From positions 32,001 through 96,000 of IMG/VR virus record IMGVR_UViG_3300043811_000021: DNA of 64,000 nt. One strand, written 5' to 3'. The position numbers and the translations under genes were made by a program. Shown piece by piece: positions 12,777 to 33,425 of the stretch. The stretch's first letter is position 1. Every line of letters begins with the position of its first letter. This DNA is from a virus. The notes beneath the pieces are model-generated. The model saw only the letters and a program-made list of their open reading frames with translations, had not been told where the DNA came from and did no database searches.

Positions 12777-13276
12777 TTCGATCCTTTTGCACCCTTTGCC
12801 CACAAAAGCCACTTCATCAACGAAATAGATTGGCTTATACTCCTCTGCGGCCTTCCCGTCTGCGGTCATATAGCCGTTGTCTATGAGGTGCTGGTAGTTC
12901 TTGCGGTATGTCTCTAGTCTTTCTTTTGTCATGCTTGCAGAATACCACAAATACTTGCGTTTTTCTAGTTGACTTTTCTGTACGGAAGGCGCAGAATAAT
13001 AGACATGGAGAAAACAAATATGACGATCAAAGAATTTATTTTCAGTCCGTTTTACTATATACATGCCTGTGTAGAATATCTAAAGGCATCGAATCGCCTA
13101 TCTGCTGTAGAAAAACTGAGCGCAGAAGGAAAGATACCTTTCAGTAAACATAAGAAGGCATTTGATGAATACATGCCATACTACGAGGCAACGTGGAAAT
13201 ATTTTACGCCCACATTCTATCTCCTGTTTACGGTAATGGCAGGCGTGTTCATCGCAATAGCTATAAGGTAGATGAC

Positions 13277-13627
13277 ATGGATACCCTCTACGACATCCTC
13301 GGAATCGTACCTGCCTCCAGTCATAATGAAGTGGTGGAGGCGTACCAATCTGGAGTTCGAGCATTATTGGACGGCGGGGATTTCAAGTCTTCGATGTGGT
13401 GGTGGCCGAACCTCGAAAAGATTGATGAGATGACGCAAGCTATGAAGACTCTAGTTCACGGTGATCGCAGGCACGACTACAACCGCAAGCTAATGGCCCA
13501 AGGAATCATCTGCTCTCTCTGTGAAGGAAGAGGATGGAATCGAATGGACGGTTGTCTTACAGAGCGTACATGTATAGCCTGTGATGGGTCTGGTAAATCT
13601 CTATTGAGATATGCAGAGAAGGGATAA
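13277..13627 (+). CDS. mini DnaJ-like protein (degenerate J domain without HPD, plus zinc finger)
   Basis: TLYDILGI..AS..EV..AY; RRHDYN; CSLCEGRG and CIACDGSG. Confidence 0.65.
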   Translation: MDTLYDILGIVPASSHNEVVEAYQSGVRALLDGGDFKSSMWWWPNLEKIDEMTQAMKTLVHGDRRHDYNRKLMAQGIICSLCEGRGWNRMDGCLTERTCIACDGSGKSLLRYAEKG

Positions 13628-13628
13628 A

Positions 13629-15086
13629 ATGGGAAAGATTGAAAAACTCACGCTTGAGCAACAAATAGCGCATGATCAATGGTTTGAAGAATGTATGCGC
13701 ATCGGTACATGTACTGATCCTGCTGATCGAATAAAAGCGGAATCAGCTATCACGAAGATGTACCAGTTTATCGGCAAACCTCAACCTATATTTGTATGGT
13801 GCGATTCTCCTGCGACATGCATATTAGCGCGGTTCGTATTGCAGGAATGGTTGAAGACTAATAAAGACAATTCTTCCTTGGAGAGTTCCTTGAGGAGTTC
13901 CTTGAGGGGTTCCTTGGGGAATTCCTTGAGGAGTTCCTTGTGGAGTTCCTTGGAGAGTTCCTTGAGGAGTTCCTTGGAGAATTCCTTGGGGAGTTCCTTG
14001 AGGAGTTCCTTGTGGAGTTCCTTGGAGAGTTCCTTGGGGAGTTCCTTGGAGAGTTCCTTGGGGAGTTCCTTGTGGAGTTCCTTGAGGAGTTCCTTGGGGA
14101 GTTCCTTGGAGAGTTCCTTGGGGAGTTCCTTGTGGAGTTCCTTGGGGAGTTCCTTGGGGAGTTCCTTGAGGAGTTCCTTGGGGAATTCCTTGTGGAGTTC
14201 CTTGAGGAGTTCCTTGTGGAGTTCCTTGGGGAGTTCCTTGGGGAGTTCCTTGGGGAGTTCCTTGAGGAGTTCCTTGGGGAGTTCCTTGGAGAGTTCCTTG
14301 AGGAGTTCCTTGTGGGGTCAGCAAGAACAGTATTGGATTGGGTTTTATCGATTTATGGAACTCCACCTAAAGATCGCATACGATCCAGAAAAATCGGCTC
14401 ACCTTGGATGGTGGCAGGATATTGCAGAATCGGCTAATTGGTGGTTTCCGTATGAGGGATTCTGTTTTGTCAGTGAACGACCAATCAGATGCGCAATTGA
14501 CGAACAAAGGAGATTACATCACGATTCATTAGCTGCAATGGAATTCAAAGACGGATGGAAGATTTACTCTTATCATGGAACTACTGTTTCTGCACAACTG
14601 ATTGAGTATCCAGAAACTATCACTATCGACCAGATAAAGAACGAGGGCAATGCCGAAGTGCGGCGCTGTATGATTGAGAGGATGGGGTGGCAGAAATTTG
14701 TAGATTTGTCAGAACTGAAGGTCATCCACTCAGATACTCTTAAATCAAATTTCCCGTCACTATCTCCGTCTGCACTGGTTGACAATTCAGACCCAGCGGC
14801 GTTTCATTACGAAAGTGGAGAAGAGAAGGCAGAATTGCTTGAATCTTCTTTTCTGAAAGACTTCGAGGATCGTCCAATCCGCTTTGTTCGACTCACTTGC
14901 CCTAGTACGGGAAAGATTTATATTCAGCGTGTTGCGCACGATGAGACTAGGGCATATGAGGCTGTTGGAAGGGCGTTCGGAATGTCTGAGAAGGAGTATA
15001 AAAGCGGACGCTATTACCGGCAAGGAGATGTTTTGCTATGGGCGCTCGATCAGAATGATGAGAGAATCGTCCAGCAGCACAGCTAA
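13629..15086 (+). CDS. DUF6745-like protein with SSL(G/R/W/E) tetrapeptide repeats
   Basis: ADRIKAE..I..MY...WCDSP; WWFPYEGFCFVSERP; LHHD..AMEFKDGW..Y.YHG; NAEVRR; CPSTG. Confidence 0.75.
   Translation: MGKIEKLTLEQQIAHDQWFEECMRIGTCTDPADRIKAESAITKMYQFIGKPQPIFVWCDSPATCILARFVLQEWLKTNKDNSSLESSLRSSLRGSLGNSLRSSLWSSLESSLRSSLENSLGSSLRSSLWSSLESSLGSSLESSLGSSLWSSLRSSLGSSLESSLGSSLWSSLGSSLGSSLRSSLGNSLWSSLRSSLWSSLGSSLGSSLGSSLRSSLGSSLESSLRSSLWGQQEQYWIGFYRFMELHLKIAYDPEKSAHLGWWQDIAESANWWFPYEGFCFVSERPIRCAIDEQRRLHHDSLAAMEFKDGWKIYSYHGTTVSAQLIEYPETITIDQIKNEGNAEVRRCMIERMGWQKFVDLSELKVIHSDTLKSNFPSLSPSALVDNSDPAAFHYESGEEKAELLESSFLKDFEDRPIRFVRLTCPSTGKIYIQRVAHDETRAYEAVGRAFGMSEKEYKSGRYYRQGDVLLWALDQNDERIVQQHS
13872..14315 (+). 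repeat. 37 tandem 12-nt repeats, AGTTCCTTG(GAG/AGG/GGG/TGG)
   Basis: Counted directly; in frame within 13629..15086. Confidence 0.97.
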
Positions 15087-16942: not shown

Positions 16943-17584
16943 TCACGGCTTTATCCAGTCTGAAATCCTCTTACGAAGGATTTTCCACACAGTAATGGAC
17001 TTGAACTCTTTCAGTTCCTTTTCCTGATCCTCAACGATCTTTTGGAATAGCGTCACTTCCCCGGCGAGAGATTTTTCCTTCCCTTCAGAAATCTTCAAAT
17101 CTCTCTTAAGTGCTGCTATTTCCTTTAGTGCTTGGTCTCTCTGTTCGCGTAGGACAGTTTCTGCACTCTGCTTCCCTCCAAGAATTGCTCTCTTCTCATC
17201 TCCAGTAAGAGCGATATGCTTACTGCTCACCTTTTGCTTTGGCCTAATGCCAAACTGTCTTTTCTGTCCTGGAGTTAGAGGGTATTTACCGAGCAACGCA
17301 CCGTCCTGTAGACCGCACTGGTCCTCGTAGGCGCGTCTCTGATTGCACATATGACATGCAGAGCACAAGTTCTCAGGATCGTCTGTTCCTCCTTTAACGC
17401 GAGGAATAATATGCTCAATGGTTGCTTGGTCTGCATCGGGTTCATTGCATAGTCTGGTAGAACATCCGCACCAGTGACACACTTTTCCTTCTGCGATCCA
17501 CAGCGCCTCACGTTTTCGAGGTGTAGGCGTATCAGACCATACCTTTGTCGGCATAGGAACTAGATTGTTGGAGTTTGTACTCAT
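16943..17584 (-). CDS. HNH endonuclease with coiled-coil tail
   Basis: CHWC...TIEHIIPR..GG....NLCSACHMCNQ; TATAAT 6 nt before the ATG. Confidence 0.85.
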   Translation of the reverse strand: MSTNSNNLVPMPTKVWSDTPTPRKREALWIAEGKVCHWCGCSTRLCNEPDADQATIEHIIPRVKGGTDDPENLCSACHMCNQRRAYEDQCGLQDGALLGKYPLTPGQKRQFGIRPKQKVSSKHIALTGDEKRAILGGKQSAETVLREQRDQALKEIAALKRDLKISEGKEKSLAGEVTLFQKIVEDQEKELKEFKSITVWKILRKRISDWIKP

Positions 17585-17626
17585 AGGGGAATTATATCAT
17601 GGAAGGCGCAGGATAATAGAAGAATA

Positions 17627-17701
17627 TGGAGCGAATGACCGGGCACGATCCGGTGACTTTTGGGTGGAAGCCAAATATGTTACCAACTACACCACATTCG
17701 C
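17627..17701 (-). tRNA. tRNA-Gly(UCC)
   Basis: Cloverleaf GCGAATG/CATTCGC-T-CCA; anticodon arm TTTGG-CTTCCAC-CCAAA; T-loop ATCGTGC. Confidence 0.9.
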
Positions 17702-17706
17702 TAAAC

Positions 17707-17781
17707 TGGTCCCGGTGATCCCTTACGAGGGGACGGCCTCCGTCTTATCAGGACGGCGTTCTTCATCTGAACTACACCGGG
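17707..17781 (-). tRNA. tRNA-Ile(GAU)
   Basis: CCGTC-CTGATAA-GACGG; CCA encoded; atypical T-loop CTCGTAA. Confidence 0.85.
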
Positions 17782-17787
17782 TTAAAA

Positions 17788-17861
17788 TGGAGCCTACGCG
17801 GAGAGTTTAACTCCGGTCTCTATCGTACCAGGATAGGGCACTGTCGCTATGCTACGTAGGC
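17788..17861 (-). tRNA. tRNA-Thr(GGU)
   Basis: GCCTACG/CGTAGGC-T-CCA; CTATC-CTGGTAC-GATAG. Confidence 0.85.
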
Positions 17862-18535
17862 ATTGAACATCCCAGAGTCACAGGTATTTCATCTGTGCGT
17901 TGTAACCTGCTTCCCCTACTTTCAATCTCACTCTGAAACAGAGAACGTTTTGTAATTAACCGCCATCCTCGCCTGTGAACGATAGTTCTTATTTTTTCTA
18001 TCCTCAATCCTAAGTGTTATAGCACTTTTCTTGGGCGGCATCTCTTCCCATGGTATGTAATAGCATTCCTTTGTTTCTGGACAATATACCGCTAATATAT
18101 CAAAATCACCATCAACATATTTCATTCTATGACTACCTTTGGAATTTGCCCAAGTTGATTCTATATCTATTTTCAAAGTACCGTCGCGCACCGAGCAATA
18201 TTTCACCTGAACAGTCCATAATTTATTTGAACGATATACTACAAGATCGAATGGAGCGTGTTCCGTTTGAGGTACACAGATTATGAAGCCTTGTTCGCAA
18301 AGATCAGCCTGAACTTTCAACACCGCTAGGTCACCCTTTTCTTTTGTGTGATGACTCTTCATTTATCTATTATAACACTAAAAGAAGCACTCCGAACTTG
18401 GTTGCTCAGGTTAACGCTTTTCCTGGCTGTTAGGCATTACGACCATTTGCAACTGGTAGCCTAAACACTCTCAACTCGCCTACCTGTATTTTCCTGTGGC
18501 CTACAGGTGTTTCGGTAGGTCTGTATCGAGCTAAC
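17862..18535 (-). ncRNA. unassigned structured RNA (~240 nt in two parts) with an endonuclease ORF in a loop
   Basis: TGCTTCTTTTA before the ORF pairs with TAGGGGAAGCA after it; further stems CCTAC/GTAGG, ACCTGT/ACAGGT, TTAGGC/GCCTAA, CAGG/CCTG, CACAG/CTGTG. Confidence 0.5.
17928..18362 (-). CDS. PD-(D/E)XK endonuclease, group I intron-associated (I-Ssp6803I-like) family
   Basis: TKEKGDLA...PFDLV...VQVKY...Y..GDFDILAVYCP...CYYIP. Confidence 0.85.
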   Translation of the reverse strand: MKSHHTKEKGDLAVLKVQADLCEQGFIICVPQTEHAPFDLVVYRSNKLWTVQVKYCSVRDGTLKIDIESTWANSKGSHRMKYVDGDFDILAVYCPETKECYYIPWEEMPPKKSAITLRIEDRKNKNYRSQARMAVNYKTFSVSE

Positions 18536-18536
18536 T

Positions 18537-18614
18537 TGGTGCGCCGTGAGAGGCTCGAACTCCCGACCTAGTGCTTGTAAGGCACCCGCTCTGAACCAAC
18601 TGAGCTAACAGCGC
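18537..18614 (-). tRNA. tRNA-Val(UAC)
   Basis: GGTGC-CTTACAA-GCACT; canonical D and T arms; CCA. Confidence 0.95.
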
Positions 18615-18619
18615 AAAAA

Positions 18620-18695
18620 TGGACGGTCTATCGGAAGTTGAATCCGAATTTCTACCTTCGGAGGGTAGCGCCCTTATCCGTTGGACCATAGACCG
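18620..18695 (-). tRNA. tRNA-Arg(CCG)
   Basis: CTACC-CTCCGAA-GGTAG; CCA. Confidence 0.9.
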
Positions 18696-18701
18696 AAAAT
18701 A

Positions 18702-18780
18702 TGGTGCCGCTGGCCAGAATCGAACTGGCGTCAATCCGTCTACTCGAAGCCCGCTTAGGAGGCGGGTGAGGTACAGCGGC
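18702..18780 (-). tRNA. D-arm-less tRNA-like gene, anticodon CCU (Arg)
   Basis: Acceptor GCCGCTG/CAGCGGC-A-CCA; only TACCTCA precedes the anticodon arm CCCGC-CTCCTAA-GCGGG; ~20-nt variable region; canonical T arm. Confidence 0.7.
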
Positions 18781-18784
18781 AAGA

Positions 18785-18861
18785 TGGTGCTGACGGCTGG
18801 GATCGAACCAGCGGCATCTTGCTTAGAAGGCAAGCACTCTATCCGTCTGAGTTACGTCAGC
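18785..18861 (-). tRNA. tRNA-Arg(UCU)
   Basis: CTTGC-CTTCTAA-GCAAG; CCA. Confidence 0.95.
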
Positions 18862-18865
18862 AATC

Positions 18866-18951
18866 TGGTGGAGCCGGTGGGACTTGAACCCACATTGGGT
18901 TTCCCCGCTCATTAAAAGTGAGGTCTCTGCATCCAATTCGAGTACGACTCC
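18866..18951 (-). tRNA. tRNA-Lys(UUU) with long variable arm
   Basis: CTCA-CTTTTAA-TGAG; extra arm GGG-GAAA-CCC; CCA. Confidence 0.85.
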
Positions 18952-18959
18952 ATTAAACT

Positions 18960-19036
18960 TGGTGAGCGCGGCTGGATTTGAACCAGCGTCAGCCTGCTTA
19001 AGAGGCAGGTATAATCAGCCGCTATACGACGCGCTC
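18960..19036 (-). tRNA. tRNA-Lys(CUU)
   Basis: CCTGC-CTCTTAA-GCAGG; CCA. Confidence 0.93.
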
Positions 19037-19037
19037 A

Positions 19038-19117
19038 TGGTAGACGTGACGGGTGTCGAACCCGCGTACTCCCGCTTATAAGGCAGGTGCTAAAACCAAT
19101 CCATCAGCTACACGTCT
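19038..19117 (-). tRNA. tRNA-Ile(UAU)
   Basis: CCTGC-CTTATAA-GCGGG; CCA. Confidence 0.88.
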
Positions 19118-19126
19118 GTAAAACTA

Positions 19127-19202
19127 TGGTGCCAGTGGCTCAACTCGAATGAGCTACCTCCGACTTATGAGATCGGCGCATATCCACTTCTGCTTCACTG
19201 GC
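19127..19202 (-). tRNA. tRNA-Met/Ile2(CAU)
   Basis: CCGAT-CTCATAA-GTCGG; CCA. Confidence 0.88.
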
Positions 19203-19207
19203 GAAAC

Positions 19208-19278
19208 TGGCAGGGGATAGGAGAATCGAACTCCTCACGGCGAGTTTTGGAGACTCGCCTAATCCCAGATCATCCCCT
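19208..19278 (-). tRNA. tRNA-Trp(CCA), short D arm; first gene of operon A
   Basis: AGGGGAT/ATCCCCT-G-CCA; CGAGT-CTCCAAA-ACTCG. Confidence 0.9.
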
Positions 19279-19290
19279 GTATATCCTGCG

Positions 19291-19305
19291 AATTTTCAAT
19301 GATCA
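19291..19305 (-). promoter_or_regulatory. boxA-like antitermination element
   Basis: TGATCATTGAAAATT immediately after terminator A; resembles rRNA-operon boxA. Confidence 0.45.
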
Positions 19306-19333
19306 AAAAGAAGCCCTTCCACTGAGGAAGGGC
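19305..19333 (-). terminator. attenuator terminator A
   Basis: GCCCTTCC-TCAGT-GGAAGGGC followed by TTCTTTTT, between leader ORF A and tRNA-Trp. Confidence 0.9.
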
Positions 19334-19359
19334 CGGTGCTACAACACTTGCACAGACCC

Positions 19360-19431
19360 CTAAGACACGATCCCCCATCCCATCCGCTTGATGGTTATGG
19401 TTCTGACGTGTTTGCTAGTGGTCTGCATCAT
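19360..19431 (-). CDS. leader peptide A, MMQTTSKHVRTITIKRMGWGIVS
   Basis: AAAGGA ribosome-binding site; TATAAT at 19467-19472; codons match operon A anticodons. Confidence 0.85.
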   Translation of the reverse strand: MMQTTSKHVRTITIKRMGWGIVS

Positions 19432-19526
19432 TTTTCCTTTGTCGAGGGGTTTCCCGCTCTAGCCCTATTATATCCCAGGCTGGGGTTTAGCTCTGCATAA
19501 TCCATCTACAGAGTACCGCAAGTCGA

Positions 19527-19856
19527 TTAGGAATGCAAGCCCAAAAATCGATAAGTCAACAATAAAGTTGTCAGATGGATCGCCTGATCGAACCCAATCA
19601 GCACAAAGAACCAGTGACGCTTCTCTTTCTTCCACAAATACGAAGTCCCCCTAGAGGTAATGTAATCGGTCGCGAAATGGAAGACAAACGTAATTATAGC
19701 GAACTTCCAGCCGAAAGCCAAGAATGGAAGAGAGTAAACAGAGACGTGAATTCCAAGCCATGTGTTTCTCGTTGACTTATTGAGAGCCATATTATCAGTT
19801 TGCAGAACAAAATCTGAGATGAAGTGAATCCAGATCAACGCTAAGATGTAGAGCAT
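19527..19856 (-). CDS. DUF3307-like membrane protein
   Basis: [14 protein letters not shown]...Y, HFATDY, GFDQAIH. Confidence 0.8.
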
Positions 19857-20603
19857 GATTTCTCCTAGTGGTCACGAAATATACTGCAATCAGAATAATC
19901 CGTCCCCTCTATCTTGCCTTTCTCAAATTGATTTCTTCCGTACTTTCTACAAAAGTGAGCCAGCTCTATCCACTCTTTATCTTCAAGTGAAGTAGAAGGA
20001 AGAGAGATTTTGATATTTTTTAATAATTCCTTAAATTTTTCGTCTTCTTTTTCGAGAAGTTCTCTTTTATGCTGGCCAATCTGGTCGTACATGGTAACAT
20101 TTCCAATCCAATTCTGTGCCTCCTCTGCACTGAATCCAAAAGATTCAACACAAGTTCTTTCTGCCTCTCTTTTCCATTCGTACATAATAATCCTCAATCG
20201 TTTATCGTCTTCCGTTTTTCCAGTCTTTTAACCAATGAATCAACAACAGACTCTAGGCTGTGTCGATCTCCAAAGTGACCTACTCCATCTACTACATCAG
20301 AACATATCTCTATTACCTCTTGTAGTCGCAGGCTTTCCAAATCTTTTCCTAATCGATCCCCTTTCATTATTATCTCTAGTCTTTCAAGAACGGAAGTTAA
20401 AACTTCCTGTCCTTTTATTACGGCTGTTAGAAAGTCATCTGCGAACACCATGTTCTCAATAAGAATAGTTCCATCGGAAAACCATTCTGCATTGTTCTTA
20501 ATCTTTATTCTGTAGCATCTCATCGTTGTCTCCTATGCATATTATAGCAAAAAAATAGGGGAGAACAATATTCCGCTCTCCCCGCTCACAAAATGGTTAA
20601 AGG

Positions 20604-20906
20604 TTAAACCGCCAGTGCTTCCAAAGCAGCCAGTTCCTTTTCCAGTTCGCTCTTCTTCTGGGCAGGAGTCTTGAGAGAGTCAATCCGTGCTGTCAGTTCA
20701 CGCTTACGTGCAGCGATCTTGTCAGAGTTACGAGATGTGATCTCCCGGCGAATTGCTTTCAGTTGCGAATCAATGAACTCAGGCTCTTCGATCTGTAATG
20801 CCTCGTATTCGGCACGGAGAGACTTTCCGAAGGCCAGTCCAGCAACCAACTCGTCAATGTCAGTTACGCGGTCAGTGTTGAATGTCTTGAATGTTTGAAG
20901 ATTCAT
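20604..20906 (-). CDS. small coiled-coil protein coupled to the TROVE/vWA gene
   Basis: ATGA overlap with 20903..22411. Confidence 0.65.
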   Translation of the reverse strand: MNLQTFKTFNTDRVTDIDELVAGLAFGKSLRAEYEALQIEEPEFIDSQLKAIRREITSRNSDKIAARKRELTARIDSLKTPAQKKSELEKELAALEALAV

Positions 20907-22411
20907 GCTGTTACCAGTTTACCTTTCTGTGCCCCCTTGAGCACTGAGTTGAGAGTTAAAAGCGGAGTGGCCAGGATTTCATCCACAAGTCCGTAGGTTT
21001 TCGTTCTCATAGTCTGCGCCAAATTTGGGATTGAGTAGTAATCCGTTCCGCCCCTTATGTCAAATGTCTGCATTTCCAGTCCAGCACTCTGCATCTTCGT
21101 TGTGAGGCTGTTAGGCTCACCTTCAACGTGGTACAGATATACTGGAACGTCACGGTCAGCGAACGCCACATATTTCTTGTAAACGTCCGTAAAGTACGGT
21201 GCGCTATGTTCCGCGCCGTCAGAAACAATTGCAATTCCATCAACCGAAATCTTCTCCTGAAGCATCCTGTTCAAACCGCAGCCGATGGATGTTCCACCGT
21301 TGGCTGTGATGTGCCTTGTTGCCTTTTGGATTGAGTCCAGAGGCAATCCTGTTACATCAATAGTCATCGGGTTAGTGTCAAAGAATACAAGGTAGACCTT
21401 TCCTCTGCAAATCTTAGCCAACGTAGCAGCAACGTGACGGGATGCCTCAATGGAACGAGACATACTACCCGACTTGTCTGCCAAAACGAGCCAATCGCCT
21501 TCTGGTCCTCCCATTGCCGCAATCTGCTTATCTTGTAGTCCCTGCAACTTCTCTTTCAGAACAGAGTCAGTCACAGACTCAGCAGCTTTGGTCGTCTTCA
21601 GCGTATTCTTCTTAGACGTTGCAGCCTTTGCTAATGCCTGATCAAATGCCCCGCGAAGTGCAGGATTCGTCTTCAGTCCCAACTTCTCCAACATCTTCAC
21701 GTTGGTAGTCAACTCAGTCGCAGACATTGCTCCAATCAACGCCAGAACCAAATCAGGTTCCTTCGCCTTTGCTCCCAATGCTCCCATCGCGATAAGGAAA
21801 GGAATCCGGTAACGCATGATCGATCCTGCCGCTTCCGTAGGAGTCATGTTCTTGAGGTTTGCTACTACCTCAAATACCGATCCCTTGGGAAGTGGTAATT
21901 TATTACCCTTTTCATCCTTACCGAAAAGAACCGCACGAACACGGTCTGCCTTTGTCTCAGGGCGAACATGGCCAAGAGCATACAACTCCCTCAGCGTCTT
22001 CCTATGCTGAATTGCCAGATGATCCCAGCCCTTATCCTGCTCCTTCTCATGCAGGTAATCGCCAATCAACCGGCGCAAAGGAAGCATCTTACCTGCTGGA
22101 CGAATCTCACGCGCAAAATGGAAAGCGCGAAGCAACTCACGCGGTCCAAGCAATGCTAAATGAGCATACGCATTATCCAATAACTCCGAGTCATTCTCAT
22201 ATGCCAAGCCGATAACTGGAAGAGCAACCTTGCTGTCCCTTATCTGCCCATGAGTTCTATCCCAGGAAATCAAATGCGCAAAGAATTCGCCTTCCTGTTT
22301 TACTGCCTGTTGTCCGATAGGAACGTATTCCTTCAGCGCACCGTGAGGACTTTTTGAAAGTTCACTCACAATTCTTTGTTTTGTCAATCCCTGTTCTGCC
22401 ATAGTATTCAT
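20903..22411 (-). CDS. TROVE-like + vWA (Ro60/Rsr-related) RNA-binding protein
   Basis: 502 aa; helical N-terminal region (FFAHL..W......RD..VALP), MIDAS motif LADKSGSM, GGTSIG, IVSDG; size and layout match Ro60. The TROVE call is inferred. Confidence 0.65.
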   Translation of the reverse strand: MNTMAEQGLTKQRIVSELSKSPHGALKEYVPIGQQAVKQEGEFFAHLISWDRTHGQIRDSKVALPVIGLAYENDSELLDNAYAHLALLGPRELLRAFHFAREIRPAGKMLPLRRLIGDYLHEKEQDKGWDHLAIQHRKTLRELYALGHVRPETKADRVRAVLFGKDEKGNKLPLPKGSVFEVVANLKNMTPTEAAGSIMRYRIPFLIAMGALGAKAKEPDLVLALIGAMSATELTTNVKMLEKLGLKTNPALRGAFDQALAKAATSKKNTLKTTKAAESVTDSVLKEKLQGLQDKQIAAMGGPEGDWLVLADKSGSMSRSIEASRHVAATLAKICRGKVYLVFFDTNPMTIDVTGLPLDSIQKATRHITANGGTSIGCGLNRMLQEKISVDGIAIVSDGAEHSAPYFTDVYKKYVAFADRDVPVYLYHVEGEPNSLTTKMQSAGLEMQTFDIRGGTDYYSIPNLAQTMRTKTYGLVDEILATPLLTLNSVLKGAQKGKLVTA

Positions 22412-22426
22412 CCTCCCGGAGATGTG

Positions 22427-22978
22427 TTATGGAAGTTTACGTTTTGCAAGGTAGTCAACAAAGAAGTTATAATCTAACTTCCGCTCCTTACACCAGTCAT
22501 GCGGGTCCATCGAACCTTTCCTCTTATTGCAATTTTTACAGGCAGAAAGGAAATTTGATGTGTCATTCGCCCCACCCGTTTCAAGTGGCTGGAAGTGATC
22601 GATTGACAGTGGAGATACACCCATTTTCACGCCGCAGTACATGCATTTGCATCCGTCAGCGACCCATACTTTCTGCTGCACCGCTCCAGAAATTTCATAG
22701 CGTACCTTGCGATGAAACGCTTTCGCTGGCATCACTAAAATCTCAGGATTATCTGTACGAGCTAAAAAGTCCGTCCACTCTTCGAGAGAAAGACGTTCAG
22801 TAGAGCATTCGCTAATATCTGGGCAATCTGGCAGCATGAGGATAGCCATTGCACCTTCTCCCCCCACTACCAACCCCTCAATTTTAAGGATATTACCCAA
22901 GTCGCCATAAACCGCTGGACGGTGGCGAAGCTCAAGCATATAAAAACGATCTCCGCTAGCCATATTATCCTCTCCCAA
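22427..22978 (-). CDS. HNH endonuclease domain protein
   Basis: CMYCG...SIDHFQP...GG.....NFLSACKNCNKRKG. Confidence 0.85.
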   Translation of the reverse strand: MGEDNMASGDRFYMLELRHRPAVYGDLGNILKIEGLVVGGEGAMAILMLPDCPDISECSTERLSLEEWTDFLARTDNPEILVMPAKAFHRKVRYEISGAVQQKVWVADGCKCMYCGVKMGVSPLSIDHFQPLETGGANDTSNFLSACKNCNKRKGSMDPHDWCKERKLDYNFFVDYLAKRKLP

Positions 22979-23308: not shown

Positions 23309-23773
23309 TCAACTATTCCTACCGCGAATCTTACGGCAATCAATACAGTAGTCCCTTAATCCGGTTTCCTTATTGCCGTCCTTGTGAAATCTTCCTTTTG
23401 GTATCCAATCCTGATGACGACTACACCAAGCCATTCCGTCAGGAGCTATTCCTATAGTTCGTATGGAATTGTACGTTGCCTTACCTAAATGACCGGCGGC
23501 AATGTTGCATCTTTTATGGGAAAATGCTATGTTCTCCAAATCCCAAAAGAGGTCGGCGCTTATTCCTTCCCAAGGTTTCTTGTGTTCTATAGAACACTCA
23601 GAAGATTTTTCAATCTTCTTCTTACAGCGATAACAAGTATCTGCTCCGCATCTTTTTACAAGATCAAACAAGATAAGTCTATAAAGTCTGCCATTCGCAG
23701 TACCAAAAGGCATATTTAGCGTCTCATCTTTTTTCCATGTAGAACTCTTCTTTTTTATTTCCATCATCTCCAT
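23309..23773 (-). CDS. HNH-type homing endonuclease
   Basis: CYRC...SIEHKKPW...LENIAFSHKRCN; C-terminal zinc module. The track's 5' extension overlaps ncRNA, so the start was moved. Confidence 0.75.
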   Translation of the reverse strand: MEMMEIKKKSSTWKKDETLNMPFGTANGRLYRLILFDLVKRCGADTCYRCKKKIEKSSECSIEHKKPWEGISADLFWDLENIAFSHKRCNIAAGHLGKATYNSIRTIGIAPDGMAWCSRHQDWIPKGRFHKDGNKETGLRDYCIDCRKIRGRNS

Positions 23774-23819
23774 ATAATACATGGAGGGAATAAATTTCAA
23801 CCCAATGCTGCTCTTTATC

Positions 23820-23862
23820 CATGTACCCAGGCAAAGTAACGTTTCCGTTGTGTCTTGTCCGG
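23820..23862 (-). ncRNA. Y-RNA-like motif, circularly permuted copy
   Basis: CCGGACAA-GACAC-AACG-GAAA-CGTT-ACT-TTGCCTGG-GTACATG. Confidence 0.65.
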
Positions 23863-23890
23863 TTCCGTTTTTTGCCCCCCACAACTTATT

Positions 23891-24014
23891 TGGTTAGTGT
23901 CTGTCAGCGAGTGTTGCTGGTTGAAAAAGTAGGGATCGAACCTACGACCTATTCATTTGAAGTGAATTGCTCTACCAGTGAGCTATTTTTCCGTGTACGC
24001 TGCCATGTTAACCA
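23891..24014 (-). ncRNA. Y-RNA-like ncRNA enclosing a complete tRNA fold
   Basis: TGGTTA-ACA-TGGCAGCG-TACACG...CGCTGACA-GACAC-TAACCA. Confidence 0.7.
23918..23992 (-). tRNA. tRNA-like domain with anticodon UCA (opal-reading)
   Basis: Canonical D arm GCTC/GAGC; ATTCA-CTTCAAA-TGAAT; T arm GTAGG-TTCGATC-CCTAC; ACCA end; G1-A72 mismatch; no Sec-type long arm. Confidence 0.75.
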
Positions 24015-25156: not shown

Positions 25157-25234
25157 TGGTGGACTCGGCCAGATTTGAACTGGCAACACGATGATTTTCA
25201 GTCACCTGCTCTACGCGATTGGAGCTACGAGTCC
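25157..25234 (-). tRNA. tRNA-Phe(GAA)
   Basis: GGTGA-CTGAAAA-TCATC; CCA. Confidence 0.93.
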
Positions 25235-25861
25235 GATTAACGATCTCCAGTCGTTTCTTTCTTTAGATGTCTTCCGACGATGACAATTTGCACATCGCAC
25301 AACACATTTTTCAATCTCTTCCAAAATCCTTTTCATCGAGCATGTTGAGCGTAGGAGCTTAGATATATTGCACTTTTTAACCCCTTTAATATGGTCAAAA
25401 TCCAAGACCATAATGTCCGATTCTCCGCAATCCACACAATGATGTTCCGCCAGATAAGAAACGATGAAAGCCCTTTGTTCCTGTCGTTTAATATCCCTGT
25501 TACGATAAAGGCGCTTCCGTTCTCTTTCCGAGTTATCCCTATAGTGCTGTGCCTTATAAGAACTTTCGCAAATCATGCACCATGCTTGTAGCCCATCTCT
25601 CCGTGCAGCATTTTCTCTAAAATCGCAGCGTGTTTTAACCGTGGTGCATTTGCTGCAATATTTCTCCTTTTCAGGATCGAACTTTGGAAGAAGACTTCTA
25701 CCGTCTTCCGCGATGCACTTCTTGGAGCAAAACCTACGTTTAGCATATTGAGTTTTCCAAAACTCTTTGCCACACCAAGCACATGAATAAGCAAATAGAC
25801 GCCTATTCTTGCCATGAAAAAATTCGATCCTACAATCAACCATGCAATAAGTGTAATACAA
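25211..25861 (-). CDS. HNH homing endonuclease whose 3' end runs into tRNA-Phe
   Basis: CVDCGESD...LDFDH....K...I....EIEKCVVRCANCHRRKT; upstream CxxC modules. Confidence 0.85.
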   Translation of the reverse strand: MYYTYCMVDCRIEFFHGKNRRLFAYSCAWCGKEFWKTQYAKRRFCSKKCIAEDGRSLLPKFDPEKEKYCSKCTTVKTRCDFRENAARRDGLQAWCMICESSYKAQHYRDNSERERKRLYRNRDIKRQEQRAFIVSYLAEHHCVDCGESDIMVLDFDHIKGVKKCNISKLLRSTCSMKRILEEIEKCVVRCANCHRRKTSKERNDWRSLIGLVAPIA

Positions 25862-26174: not shown

Positions 26175-26720
26175 TTACACAAACTGCAAACTCTTCTCAC
26201 CTTCGGAATCAGAGTACAAATACTTACTCCACGCTTCGACTTCCAATCCCATCGAACGAAGGATAATCCTTCCTGTGTGAACCGTGGCTGGGAGAGGCTT
26301 GCGAAGTAGTTTCATTCCAGCCTCTTCCGGCGTACGATCTGCCTTGCGGTGGTTATCTTTGCGGCAGCAAGTTACAAGGTTACTCCAGTCGTTCTTTCCT
26401 CCACGCGACTTAGGAATTACGTGGTCAAGTGTCAAAGAATCACCCTTGAATTCCTCTCCACAATAGCAGCACTTATGCCCATCGCGCAAGTAAATATTTT
26501 TCCTACTCACAACCTGCATCCGAACGGGAATATGTCTATACGTTCTCAACTTGATTACCGATGGTAAAGTTATGCCAGGATAAACTTCAATATCCGTTGG
26601 CATCTCTACCATAGCAGCACCCTTACAAAGTAACGTCAAAGCTCTACGGGCAGCAACTATTCTGATCGGCTCATACGATGCGTTTAATACCAACACCGGC
26701 TTTTTCATCAGGTTGCTCAT
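26175..26720 (-). CDS. HNH endonuclease of the type common in tRNA arrays
   Basis: VLVLNASYEP...LPSVIKL...RDGHKCCYCG...TLDHVIPKSRGG...W.NLVTCC. Confidence 0.92.
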   Translation of the reverse strand: MSNLMKKPVLVLNASYEPIRIVAARRALTLLCKGAAMVEMPTDIEVYPGITLPSVIKLRTYRHIPVRMQVVSRKNIYLRDGHKCCYCGEEFKGDSLTLDHVIPKSRGGKNDWSNLVTCCRKDNHRKADRTPEEAGMKLLRKPLPATVHTGRIILRSMGLEVEAWSKYLYSDSEGEKSLQFV

Positions 26721-27384: not shown

Positions 27385-27401
27385 ACATCCCTAAACAGTT
27401 C

Positions 27402-27429
27402 GAGACCCAAACCTTTCGATCTGGGCCTC
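27402..27429 (-). terminator. attenuator hairpin B (weak U tract)
   Basis: GAGGCCCAGATC-GAAA-GGTTTGGGTCTC followed by GAACTGTTT. Confidence 0.6.
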
Positions 27430-27476
27430 TGCGTTTTACCATTTTTAGTTAGGTAAAAATCTCTCTGAGACCCCGA

Positions 27477-27542
27477 TTATGACCCCCCACCCTGCGGCGT
27501 TTGTGTCGCGGTTGGATTGGCGTTATGGAATCGTGTCTGCAT
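27477..27542 (-). CDS. leader peptide B, MQTRFHNANPTATQTPQGGGS (leaderless)
   Basis: ATG 6 nt after the -10 box; codons match operon B anticodons. Confidence 0.85.
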   Translation of the reverse strand: MQTRFHNANPTATQTPQGGGS

Positions 27543-31362: not shown

Positions 31363-31434
31363 CTATCCCATAGCCTCTCTCGCACTCAGACTGAGTGAAT
31401 ACGATGATAAAGATAGGGAGCACAAGTTGTTCAT
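31363..31434 (-). CDS. leader peptide C, MNNLCSLSLSSYSLSLSAREAMG
   Basis: Codons 4-17 are only Leu/Ser/Cys/Tyr, matching operon C; ATG 6 nt after the -10 box (GAGGA could also act as a ribosome-binding site). Confidence 0.88.
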   Translation of the reverse strand: MNNLCSLSLSSYSLSLSAREAMG

Positions 31435-31469: not shown

Positions 31470-33425
31470 GACTTCTTTTTTGTTATTTTCGTTATCCGCA
31501 CATTCTTTAGTTTTGAACGGACAATTCTCGCCAGACGTGCGATCTCCTTGAGTTTTTCTCCCTTCCATATTTCTTCGTCCGCCAAAAGAACTCTTCCGTG
31601 CTTATCTGTAGATAATTTTAATATCGCAGATGTGATGTCAGGTATTGAGTCTTTCTTTGTGTACTTCTTCTTCAGGATTATCGCCATATATCTCCTCAAT
31701 CCGGGTACTTAACTTTGTCTGGATTTTCCTTTTGCCAGTCCGAAAATTGCGCAGCAAAATGAGCCACTTCATCTGCCTGTTCATCTAAACTCGATGCAAG
31801 ATTTATGGCCTCTTCCTCAGTCAGGTTCTTGTCGCGTTCTACCCATTCTGACAATTGCTGCAATAGAACAGCGTATTGTCTCACAGCCTGTACTGAAAGG
31901 CGATCCTGAGCGCGAATGAAAAAGTACGGCTCCCCTTTATGTAGCCTTAGTAGTGGGTTTTCGTTTGCATATTTACCTGTCTTTGGCATTTACTCTCCTG
32001 CTTTCTGCGATAAATTTATCGAGTTTTTCAGATTCTGGCTTGAGAAACTCTTCTTCAATACGATTCGCTTCTCGTTTGAAAGCATCTGCCAATTCGGTTT
32101 TGTTTCCAATCCAGTATTGGGCAGATTTTTGCTTAATAATATGCACAACGCCTCGGTAGGTCTCTACCTTCGCTGCTACAGATGTCCACTCCATTTGGTA
32201 GTCAAAATAATCTTGAGTAATATCCTCATTGTCAACTTTTTCCATTCCTTGCCTCCATCATTTGATCTGCTATTCTATATGCCCTTTGCGCTATCTTTTC
32301 ATATTCGTCTTTCGTCATAGGCTCCCCTAATTTGATAGAAAGGTTGACTTGACCACTTATAATAGAACCCAGAGCAGCCATAGCGAACTCATCCCGCAGT
32401 CTCTTCTTTACCTCTTCTGTCATAGAAAAAATCTGCTGAGGTGAATCCGAAAAATCGGGAGGATTGATGTTAGTTCCCTCAAATACTAACGGCGGGTTGG
32501 AGTACATCTTCAGGTATTCATTTGCTTCAGCCAATTGAGCGGCTATCTCGGTCAGCATGGAGCATTGCAAAGACAGCATCCCCATCTCTTGCGATCCAAT
32601 TGATTCAGTATCATGAGCATCATTCTGGCACAGCTCATTTGCTTTGCGAATATCATCTGGTTTCATATCTAATCCCACCACCCTCTCCAGTGTTTGCGCA
32701 TGATAGTAAACAACAACTCCTCATCCTGTTTCGCCAGTTTTCCTGCTTCCGTGCCAGAATACTTATAGCGCGGGAACCCTTTGTCAGTGTTTTTGAAATA
32801 TTCGTTCTTAATCAACCTTCTCAGAAGGTGAGAGCATACCCTCATCCTACGCGCACTCTTTTCGCTCCCGATATGATGACCGTACTTCTCGAATCCTTCC
32901 GCCATTCGAGAAATTTTATATTCCATGATCTCCGCGAGAAATGACCAATCAAAATCCGCATCTCTCCAGATCACGGGTGCCCATCGGATCATATTCCTCG
33001 GTACGTACCAAAACAAATCCTCAACGATGGACTTGACATTCCTAAAGAACGTCTTAGGCATCCATCTATACGGAACACTGTAGAATTTACTCATTATTAT
33101 CCACCAAATACCACACCCTATTCATCCGAGCATGGTTCGTTACCCTTGCTGACTTTTTCCAATCCCCAAAGAATACGAATTCTTTGCCTCTGAACAAACT
33201 ACCCGCTGCGTTTCCTAACAATTCAGGATTAAGATTTCTCTTCTCCATCTCAGCAAACACATCGTCTGCCGTTACGCTTCCCTTTCGTTCGGCTATCTCA
33301 ATTGCTATTTTCCTAGCGTCCGCAATCATTTTCCTGCGACAGAAAGCATCCTCTGCCTGAGACATTCCTGATTCCTTCAGGCGCTCACCTTCTGGTAAAT
33401 CGAATCTAAGTTCGCACTGTGTCAT

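Follow-up and report, generated by a model that had tools for sequence, protein, structure and literature searches.

Leader-peptide attenuators are known in enterobacteria from the trp, his, leu and phe leaders, and multivalent versions respond to several amino acids, as in ilvGMEDA (Ile/Val/Leu) and thr (Thr/Ile). The same principle reaches the decoding machinery in pheST, where the pheM leader mediates attenuation of phenylalanyl-tRNA synthetase. Phage tRNA genes are usually treated as constitutive supplements for host-rare codons, and to our knowledge their regulation is largely unknown. The present work concerns attenuator A, a short element preceding a block of 12 tRNA genes (block A) in a 64,000-nucleotide (nt) stretch of a virus, hereafter the window (IMG/VR record IMGVR_UViG_3300043811_000021, positions 32,001 to 96,000). 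The source record spans 134,145 bp and is rated complete, and all of its tRNA genes lie inside the window on the minus strand. From its sequence, attenuator A is probably a ribosome-mediated (leader-peptide) transcription attenuator that gates this block. The sequence-level features tested for a trp-type attenuator, which an earlier note on this DNA had proposed, are all present in the window, and they appear conserved or co-varying in four variants and in a cultured phage.

As with the enterobacterial attenuators, the phage element would combine a short translated leader carrying the regulatory codons with three mutually exclusive helices (the 1:2 protector, the 2:3 antiterminator and the 3:4 terminator), a terminator placed before the cargo, and a stop codon positioned so that a terminating ribosome masks region 2. 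It differs from them in being encoded by a phage and in its cargo, which is made of tRNA genes instead of biosynthetic enzymes, so that the product would feed directly back on the signal. Moreover, the phage leaders sample 11-15 anticodons once or twice, whereas the enterobacterial ones contain runs of one to three amino acids, and what the phage leader would discriminate are synonymous codons (isoacceptors), not amino acids. The pheST system shares the leader-peptide attenuation of a decoding-machinery component, but with a single amino acid and a protein cargo. T-box riboswitches also use a terminator/antiterminator switch that reports tRNA status, but they bind uncharged tRNA directly, without translation.

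Two other systems are closer in cargo or in architecture. The trn operon of Anabaena sp. PCC 7120 is a long tRNA array induced under translational stress (PMC8421152; see also PMC10272220); according to the accessible part of the first paper, it is, like the phage block in the model proposed here, a supernumerary set of tRNA genes kept silent as long as translation is not impaired, but it is controlled at the promoter level via direct repeats and a repressor, and that part of the text contains 0 occurrences of 'attenuat' or 'leader'. In mycobacteria, leaderless polycysteine short open reading frames (ORFs) are described, in the portion of the source available, as cysteine-responsive attenuators (bioRxiv 10.1101/834739). 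In one variant of attenuator A (L025) and in two further leaders of the phage (B and C), the operon likewise opens with a leaderless sensing ORF; the mycobacterial system differs in its single amino acid signal and its protein-coding cargo. No published description of leader-peptide attenuation acting on tRNA genes turned up in literature searches. What appears to be new here is the use of leader-peptide attenuation with tRNA genes as cargo, together with sensing at the isoacceptor level, the attenuation principle itself being known.

The leader ORF and its codons

Attenuator A lies on the minus strand between a DUF3307 gene (19856..19527) and the first tRNA gene of block A. The order of elements along that strand is TATAAT, AAGGA, ATG ATG, the leader ORF, AGGGGUCUGUGC, a 10-nt spacer, GCACCGGCCCUU, a hairpin with UCUUUUU, TGATCATTGAAAATT and tRNA-Trp (coordinates in Table 1). 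Re-reading of the minus strand recovered the short leader ORF noted before, from 19431 or 19428 to 19360, which stands with its start signals upstream of the cargo and on the same strand. Translation likely starts at the second ATG, giving 22 codons, rather than at the first one, a choice preferred because of the alignment with relatives and of the AAGGA motif 6 nt upstream. The leader of the window may be transcribed by read-in from the DUF3307 gene instead of from a promoter of its own.

The codon content of leader A follows the tRNAs of block A. Under strict wobble, 18 of its 23 codons are read by the 12 tRNAs of the block, against a background of 0.29 (binomial P = 1.2e-6), defined as the share of such codons in the 129 long ORFs of the phage. 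Codons for 11 of the 12 tRNAs are present, the exception being Arg-CCU, and a coverage of at least 11 out of 12 was reached by only 112 of 100,000 random leaders drawn from the phage codon usage. Among 475 genomic ATG ORFs of 18-30 codons, a single one reaches the fraction of leader A, and it is leader A itself, which scores 2/23 against each of the other two tRNA blocks of the phage. The codon matches listed in the earlier note thus stand, and so does its claim that the Arg (AGA, CGG) and Gly (GGA, GGG) codons fit the isoacceptors of the own block and not those of the other: when the Thr codons (ACC three times, ACT) are included, all 8 Arg/Gly/Thr codons correspond to own isoacceptors. The phage has 46% G+C and makes heavy use of AGA (0.28 of Arg), ATA (0.26 of Ile), AAA (0.48 of Lys) and GGA (0.44 of Gly), which are presumably rare codons in the likely host.

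Some of these tRNAs are atypical, and some were identified by eye or with relaxed settings (Table 1). With program-called anticodons only, 15 of the 23 codons of leader A are cognate and 9/9 tRNAs are sampled. The gene for tRNA-Lys-UUU has a 7-nt loop, CTTTTAA, that gives the anticodon UUU, a variable arm that is unusually long for a tRNA-Lys, and a sub-threshold Rfam match to tmRNA. In the Arg-CCU gene, the acceptor, anticodon and T arms are normal, the D arm is absent, and a 20-nt segment follows the anticodon arm. Similar Arg-UCU and Arg-CCU genes occur in the related contig G001 (L015, about 13065-13225).

Predicted helices of the leader transcript

A terminator scan identified an intrinsic terminator before the cargo, with the stem GGCCCTTCC-TCAGT-GGAAGGGCT followed by TCTTTTT (9 pairs, 6 of them G-C, loop UCAGU). 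The alternative helix described in the earlier note, which starts in the stop codon and overlaps the 5′ arm of this terminator, was confirmed: read directly, regions 2 and 3 form 11 pairs over their 12 positions, including two G.U pairs, and the resulting hairpin, mutually exclusive with the terminator, has on its own a stability of -15.5 kcal/mol and engages 7 of the 9 nt of the terminator 5′ arm. Among 500 dinucleotide-shuffled versions of the upstream strand, 3 do as well as this antiterminator. As a whole, positions 19291-19472 fold at -63.8 kcal/mol (z = -3.28), with 0/200 shuffles as stable. In the minimum free energy (MFE) fold, the start of the ORF is paired with the segment just past the stop, the terminator forms a separate hairpin, and the GCAGACC/GGUCUGU protector is found as anticipated. 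No match to a T-box or any other cis-regulatory Rfam family was obtained in 19291..19472 at E <= 1.

The effect of translation was modelled by placing a 28-nt ribosome footprint on each leader codon and folding the transcript up to the terminator loop, before the 3′ arm. Partial transcripts were folded because equilibrium folding with the complete terminator shows no switching in the window. The predicted probability of the antiterminator, P(2:3), is 0.03 without a ribosome, rises to 0.79-0.93 when the A site is on 16 of the 22 sense codons (codons 1-13 and 17-19), falls to 0.12 on codon 20 and is 0.00 from the penultimate sense codon through the stop. A ribosome whose A site holds UAG would mask the antiterminator arm as the earlier note had supposed, and P(2:3) at the stop is 0.00 in all five variants compared below, each of which has the beginning of region 2 at +2/+3 of the stop codon. 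In this model, the scan of the window reproduces the three-state logic of the trp attenuator. The constrained folding with a ribosome footprint that had been suggested as a check gives this pattern in the partial transcript, and the pattern is absent at equilibrium once the full terminator is present.

Conservation of attenuator A in relatives

Five variants from viral and metagenome contigs were compared: those of the window, the G001 type, L025, L028=L030 and L034. The IMG/VR contig G001 (L003/L015) shows the same three-block layout with homologous leaders. A pattern scan of metagenomes returned 17 stretches, 7 of which are true attenuators and represent three new types (L025, L028=L030 and L034) in addition to the G001 type; the other 10 were chance matches without ORF, terminator and tRNA context. 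The frame of the leader is open in the five variants, and the other two frames have stops in 5/5 and 4/5 of them. The variant leaders have 22-24 codons and a stop located 27-29 nt before the terminator arm. Outside the letters forced by the search pattern, AAA, AGA and TGG are retained, and 15-18 of the 23-24 codons are cognate to each variant's own array. The AAGGA motif is kept in four of the five variants, at 5-7 nt from the aligned ATG in the G001 type, L030 and L034, and the leaderless L025 has a promoter (TTGACA-17-TACATT) followed by 6 nt to the ATG.

The helices are preserved through changes in sequence. Terminators of -12.5 to -16.7 kcal/mol with U runs are present in all five variants, with three different stem sequences that all remain paired by compensatory changes. 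Antiterminators of -15.5 to -18.9 kcal/mol, engaging 7 nt of the arm, are found in every case and are matched by 1-5 of 500 shuffles. The consensus fold from RNAalifold contains both the protector and the terminator, and in 6 pairs both partners are changed. In the MAFFT alignment, the apparently broken terminator pairs of L030 and L034 come from a one-column register shift (both have terminators with 4-nt loops), and the helices were therefore judged sequence by sequence. The protector 1:2 is clear in the window, and L025 is without the outer helix.

Among the leaders, non-synonymous changes exceed synonymous ones in 9 of 10 pairs, and the variable sites number 9, 8 and 11 at codon positions 1, 2 and 3, a pattern unlike that of protein selection, so that the peptide itself would not be what is conserved. 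This bears on the idea that the ORF encodes a functional micropeptide, or that the leader RNA, once terminated, serves as a small RNA in trans; its link with the tRNAs would then be positional only. Such roles would fit the conserved ORF and start signals, and trans roles of terminated attenuator RNAs and leader peptides are reported, in the part of the source available, for Sinorhizobium. The substitution pattern and the corresponding leader of the cultured phage Tunturi_5, of 49 amino acids (aa) and different sequence with the same codon logic, make this explanation highly improbable, and a trans role would not exclude attenuation.

Other searches returned few relatives. A blastn search of 17500-20600 against deposited phages gave only tRNA-sized matches, in 24 records, and no close DNA relative. 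The DUF3307 neighbourhoods in IMG/VR comprised 12 loci, among which only L003 has the layout of the window, and when viral contigs were scanned with exact patterns of leaders A and B, the G001 contig was the only one returned. The 6 stretches obtained in a pattern scan of genome contigs were all chance matches.

Leaders B and C of the same phage

The phage carries two more leaders of this kind. Leader B (31434..31363, MNNLCSLSLSSYSLSLSAREAMG) is upstream of a block of Leu (three), Cys, Ser (four) and Tyr tRNAs; 13 of its 23 codons match that block and 9/9 tRNAs are sampled. Leader C (27542..27477, MQTRFHNANPTATQTPQGGGS) matches its own block in 14 of 21 codons and samples all ten of its tRNAs (Asn, two Gln, Gly-GCC, two Thr, His, Phe, Pro and Arg-ACG). 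Both leaders stand behind a TTGACA promoter whose -10 element is 6 nt before the ATG, and their antiterminators are equalled by 0-2 of 500 dinucleotide shuffles. Compared to own-block matches of 18/23, 13/23 and 14/21 for leaders A, B and C, every leader scores 1-4 codons against a foreign block, at or below background. Read from the sequences, this partition between leaders and blocks holds at the level of synonymous codons, leader C (CGA, GGT, ACA twice, ACG) having three exceptions (GGG twice, ACC).

Leader C shows some peculiarities of its own. The hairpin that follows it (GAGGCCCAGAUC...GGUUUGGGUCUC; window 27385-27476, minus strand; L015 6274-6364) lacks a U run both in the window and in G001, unlike the terminator behind the C-like leader of Tunturi_5, which is canonical and has one. 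The hairpin of G001 is separated from tRNA-Asn by an HNH gene. Leader C (minus strand) also contains the Ala codons GCC and GCG, and four Ala codons are found in its G001 counterpart; block C of the window and that of G001 yielded no tRNA-Ala, and the C-like block of Tunturi_5 has three. The Ala codons of leader C may have outlived tRNA genes since lost, or may correspond to an undetected tRNA-Ala.

A cultured phage in which leader and cargo change together

One of the tRNA-sized blastn matches led to Tunturi_5, a cultured 309-kb phage of Tunturiibacter (an acidobacterial host). Its A-like array consists of Trp, Asp, two CAU, two Lys, Val-GAC, Arg-CCU/UCU/ACG/CCG, two Glu, Val-UAC, Ile-GAU and Gly-UCC tRNAs. 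Directly upstream of it lies gp308, a 49-codon ORF annotated as hypothetical, followed by a U-run terminator and TCTTTGACAA. The tRNAs of this array read 34 of the 49 codons of gp308 (background 0.447, P = 4e-4), and 15/15 anticodons are sampled. With respect to the window block, the Tunturi_5 array has extra Asp, Glu (two), Val-GAC and Arg-ACG tRNAs, and gp308 devotes 18 of its 49 codons to these five tRNAs absent from the window block (Asp 6, CGC 6, Glu 2, GTC/GTT 4). In the five leaders whose blocks lack these tRNAs, there are 0 Asp codons, 0 CGA/CGC/CGT codons and 1 Glu codon. Tunturi_5 also has a B-like leader (MKTLCLSSYCLSSSLSLS...) before Leu, Cys, Tyr and Ser tRNAs and followed by a terminator, and a C-like leader rich in Gln, His, Thr, Phe, Ala, Pro, Gly and Asn codons, which precedes its own block and is also followed by a terminator. 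The available part of the Tunturi paper counts tRNA genes only, with 0 occurrences of 'attenuat' and 'leader' (PMC11924767).

These data are relevant to the possibility of a general translation-capacity sensor, which would report overall ribosome speed or availability (under ribosome-targeting stress or host shut-off), the codon match only tuning its sensitivity. The same helices and geometry would apply to it, and the nearest published inducible tRNA array, the Anabaena trn operon, answers general translation stress in the part of the account available (PMC8421152). Such a sensor seems unlikely, since it leaves unexplained that three leaders each use the codons of their own block only, as well as the synonymous partition of Arg, Gly and Thr codons and the fact that the Tunturi_5 leader has gained codons for Asp and Glu and the CGC codon. 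A sensor of tRNA supply resolved by codon, each block being induced by stalls on the codons that its tRNAs read, is the reading that we favour, with some reserve, for the phages of this group.

Promoters and the motif past the terminator

In the window, L025 and Tunturi_5, a promoter scan found no promoter-like site in the interval from the terminator to tRNA-Trp. A conserved motif occupies this interval, and the TCTTTGACAA-type form is seen after the terminators of L025, L030, L015 and L044, with GGATAATAC too in some variants. The letters of TCTTTGACAA resemble the -35 context of the phage itself (GTTCTTGACAAG at promoter C), and no -10 element was found at 16-19 nt from it. The motif at 19305..19291 also resembles the consensus of an rrn-type boxA (a NusB/S10 site), a label that can only be tentative.

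A simpler explanation would be that the hairpin is a plain terminator of the DUF3307 unit and that the tRNAs are produced by leaky read-through or from an unrecognised promoter, the ORF and the pairings being by-products. The hairpin does follow the DUF3307 gene with no other terminator between them, a -35-like TTGACA is present past the terminator in relatives, and L030 has a promoter-like site there. This explanation is nevertheless very unlikely: it accounts neither for the codon enrichment and its block specificity nor for the conserved frame, length and stop position, nor for an antiterminator stronger than those of shuffled sequences; the TTGACA lacks a -10 partner at the right distance, the window, L025 and Tunturi_5 are devoid of promoter-like sites, and the attenuator of L025 has its own promoter immediately before the ATG.

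A model for the control of block A

In the attenuation mechanism that is proposed here, a polymerase coming from upstream would transcribe a short translated ORF written in the codons of the downstream tRNAs. With no ribosome on the leader, helix 1:2 would form and the terminator 3:4 would stop transcription at about 19305; a ribosome reaching the UAG would sit on region 2, and the terminator would form again. When the charged tRNA for a sampled codon is scarce, an early stall would cover region 1, region 2 would capture region 3 before the 3′ arm is made, and the polymerase would continue into the tRNA genes. Slow decoding of AGA, AUA, AAA, ACC and the like would keep the block expressed; it would be switched off once its own tRNAs fill the pool, and re-induced on their depletion. 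Through such stall-dependent read-through into its own tRNAs, the block would be self-limiting.

Several observations weigh against this model. The complete terminator wins at equilibrium at every ribosome position in the window (P(3:4) = 0.97-0.98), so that the switch must be kinetic. The partial transcripts of the four relatives favour 2:3 even without a ribosome (0.89-0.98), and the protector is therefore not uniformly dominant. With the A site on codons 14-16 (AAG, CGG, AUG), P(2:3) is 0.03-0.09 in the window and stalls there are not predicted to induce the block. Near-complete sensing of the leader codons is not supported: the antiterminator is predicted to be freed at 16 of the 22 sense codons, and to stay unavailable when the ribosome stalls on codons 14-16 or on any of the last three. 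AGG, the codon of Arg-CCU, is missing from the leader of the window and found in three of the four relatives. The metagenome pattern required CCATAACCAT..AAGCGG..GGGTCT, and the conservation of those letters is therefore by construction. L030 has a weak promoter-like site past the terminator (TTGATG-16-GATAAT, 9/12), whose start would fall inside tRNA-Trp. Finally, more distant tRNA clusters linked to DUF3307 (L016-L019), inspected by eye and not systematically, show no obvious leader.

Coordinates and other features of the window

The features of attenuator A and block A are collected in Table 1. A Y-RNA reading of the leader, considered because of a TROVE-like/VWA gene upstream, was dropped, as no Rfam match was found and the codon logic explains the ORF. 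That gene, located upstream of the DUF3307 gene (20903-22411, minus strand), encodes a 502-aa protein with a weak VWA match, and is tentatively taken as Ro60/TROVE-like from its sequence.

Table 1. Positions of the elements of attenuator A and of the tRNA genes that follow it (window numbering)
Feature	Position	Strand	Remarks
TATAAT	19467..19472	-	Possible -10 of the leader transcript; uncertain: -35 partner absent, missed by promoter scan
Shine-Dalgarno AAGGA	19435..19439	-	6 nt before ATG at 19428
Leader A ORF	19360..19431	-	23 aa, MMQTTSKHVRTITIKRMGWGIVS; 22 codons if start at 19428; stop UAG 19362..19360
Region 1 (protector 5′ strand), GCAGACC	19420..19426	-	Pairs with GGUCUGU; outer helix of a long ORF-enclosing hairpin; MFE and RNAalifold columns 3-9 with 77-83
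Region 2, AGGGGUCUGUGC	19350..19361	-	Begins at A of UAG; pairs with region 1 or region 3
Region 3 (antiterminator 3′ strand), GCACCGGCCCUU	19328..19339	-	Overlaps terminator 5′ arm by 7 nt
Intrinsic terminator	19334..19305	-	Stem 19334..19312, tail UCUUUUU 19311..19305; -16.7 kcal/mol
Conserved motif, TGATCATTGAAAATT	19291..19305	-	Between terminator and tRNA-Trp; TCTTTGACAA in G001 type, L025, L030, Tunturi_5
Cargo, 12 tRNA genes	17627..19280	-	Programs plus three read by eye
tRNA-Trp	19280..19209	-	Rfam, relaxed ARAGORN; missed by default ARAGORN
tRNA-CAU	19202..19127	-	Rfam, relaxed ARAGORN; missed by default ARAGORN
tRNA-Ile-UAU	19117..19038	-	Program-called
tRNA-Lys-CUU	19036..18960	-	Program-called
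tRNA-Lys-UUU	18951..18866	-	Anticodon by eye; default ARAGORN label 'Stop tta'
tRNA-Arg-UCU	18861..18785	-	Program-called
tRNA-Arg-CCU	18780..18702	-	By eye; missed by both ARAGORN and Rfam
tRNA-Arg-CCG	18695..18620	-	Program-called
tRNA-Val-UAC	18614..18537	-	Program-called
PD-(D/E)XK endonuclease gene	18362..17931	-	Inserted in block A; Pfam
tRNA-Thr-GGU	17861..17788	-	Program-called
tRNA-Ile-GAU	17781..17707	-	Read by eye
tRNA-Gly-UCC	17701..17627	-	Program-called

Genes of the PD-(D/E)XK and HNH types are found in or beside the tRNA blocks on the minus strand, at 17931-18362, 16946-17584, 22427-22978, 23309-23884, 25211-25861 and 26175-26720. These scattered endonuclease genes resemble homing endonucleases, and their positions differ between the window and G001. 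A tRNA with anticodon UCA (23922-23992, minus strand), which has a weak, A/U-rich acceptor stem, would read UGA; TGA is the commonest stop among the long ORFs (49 of 129). On the plus strand, a 491-aa ORF (13611-15086) contains a long run of SSL(R/G/E/W) repeats in the middle of the protein.

Biological meaning

If the model is correct, these phages would control part of the tRNA pool through feedback by the product, and would respond automatically, isoacceptor by isoacceptor, to the depletion of particular tRNAs by the host or by one of its anticodon nucleases. The decoding machinery would have taken over the principle of amino-acid attenuation, with the tRNA as both signal and product. A sensor of decoding that works codon by codon would explain the sorting of the tRNA genes into blocks, and it offers a testable link between phage tRNA arrays and the shortage or cleavage of host tRNAs. 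Since the design is present in a cultured pair, Tunturi_5 and Tunturiibacter psychrotolerans X4BP1, it can be tested at the bench, and, as a small natural element, it could also serve in building sensors for single tRNA pools.

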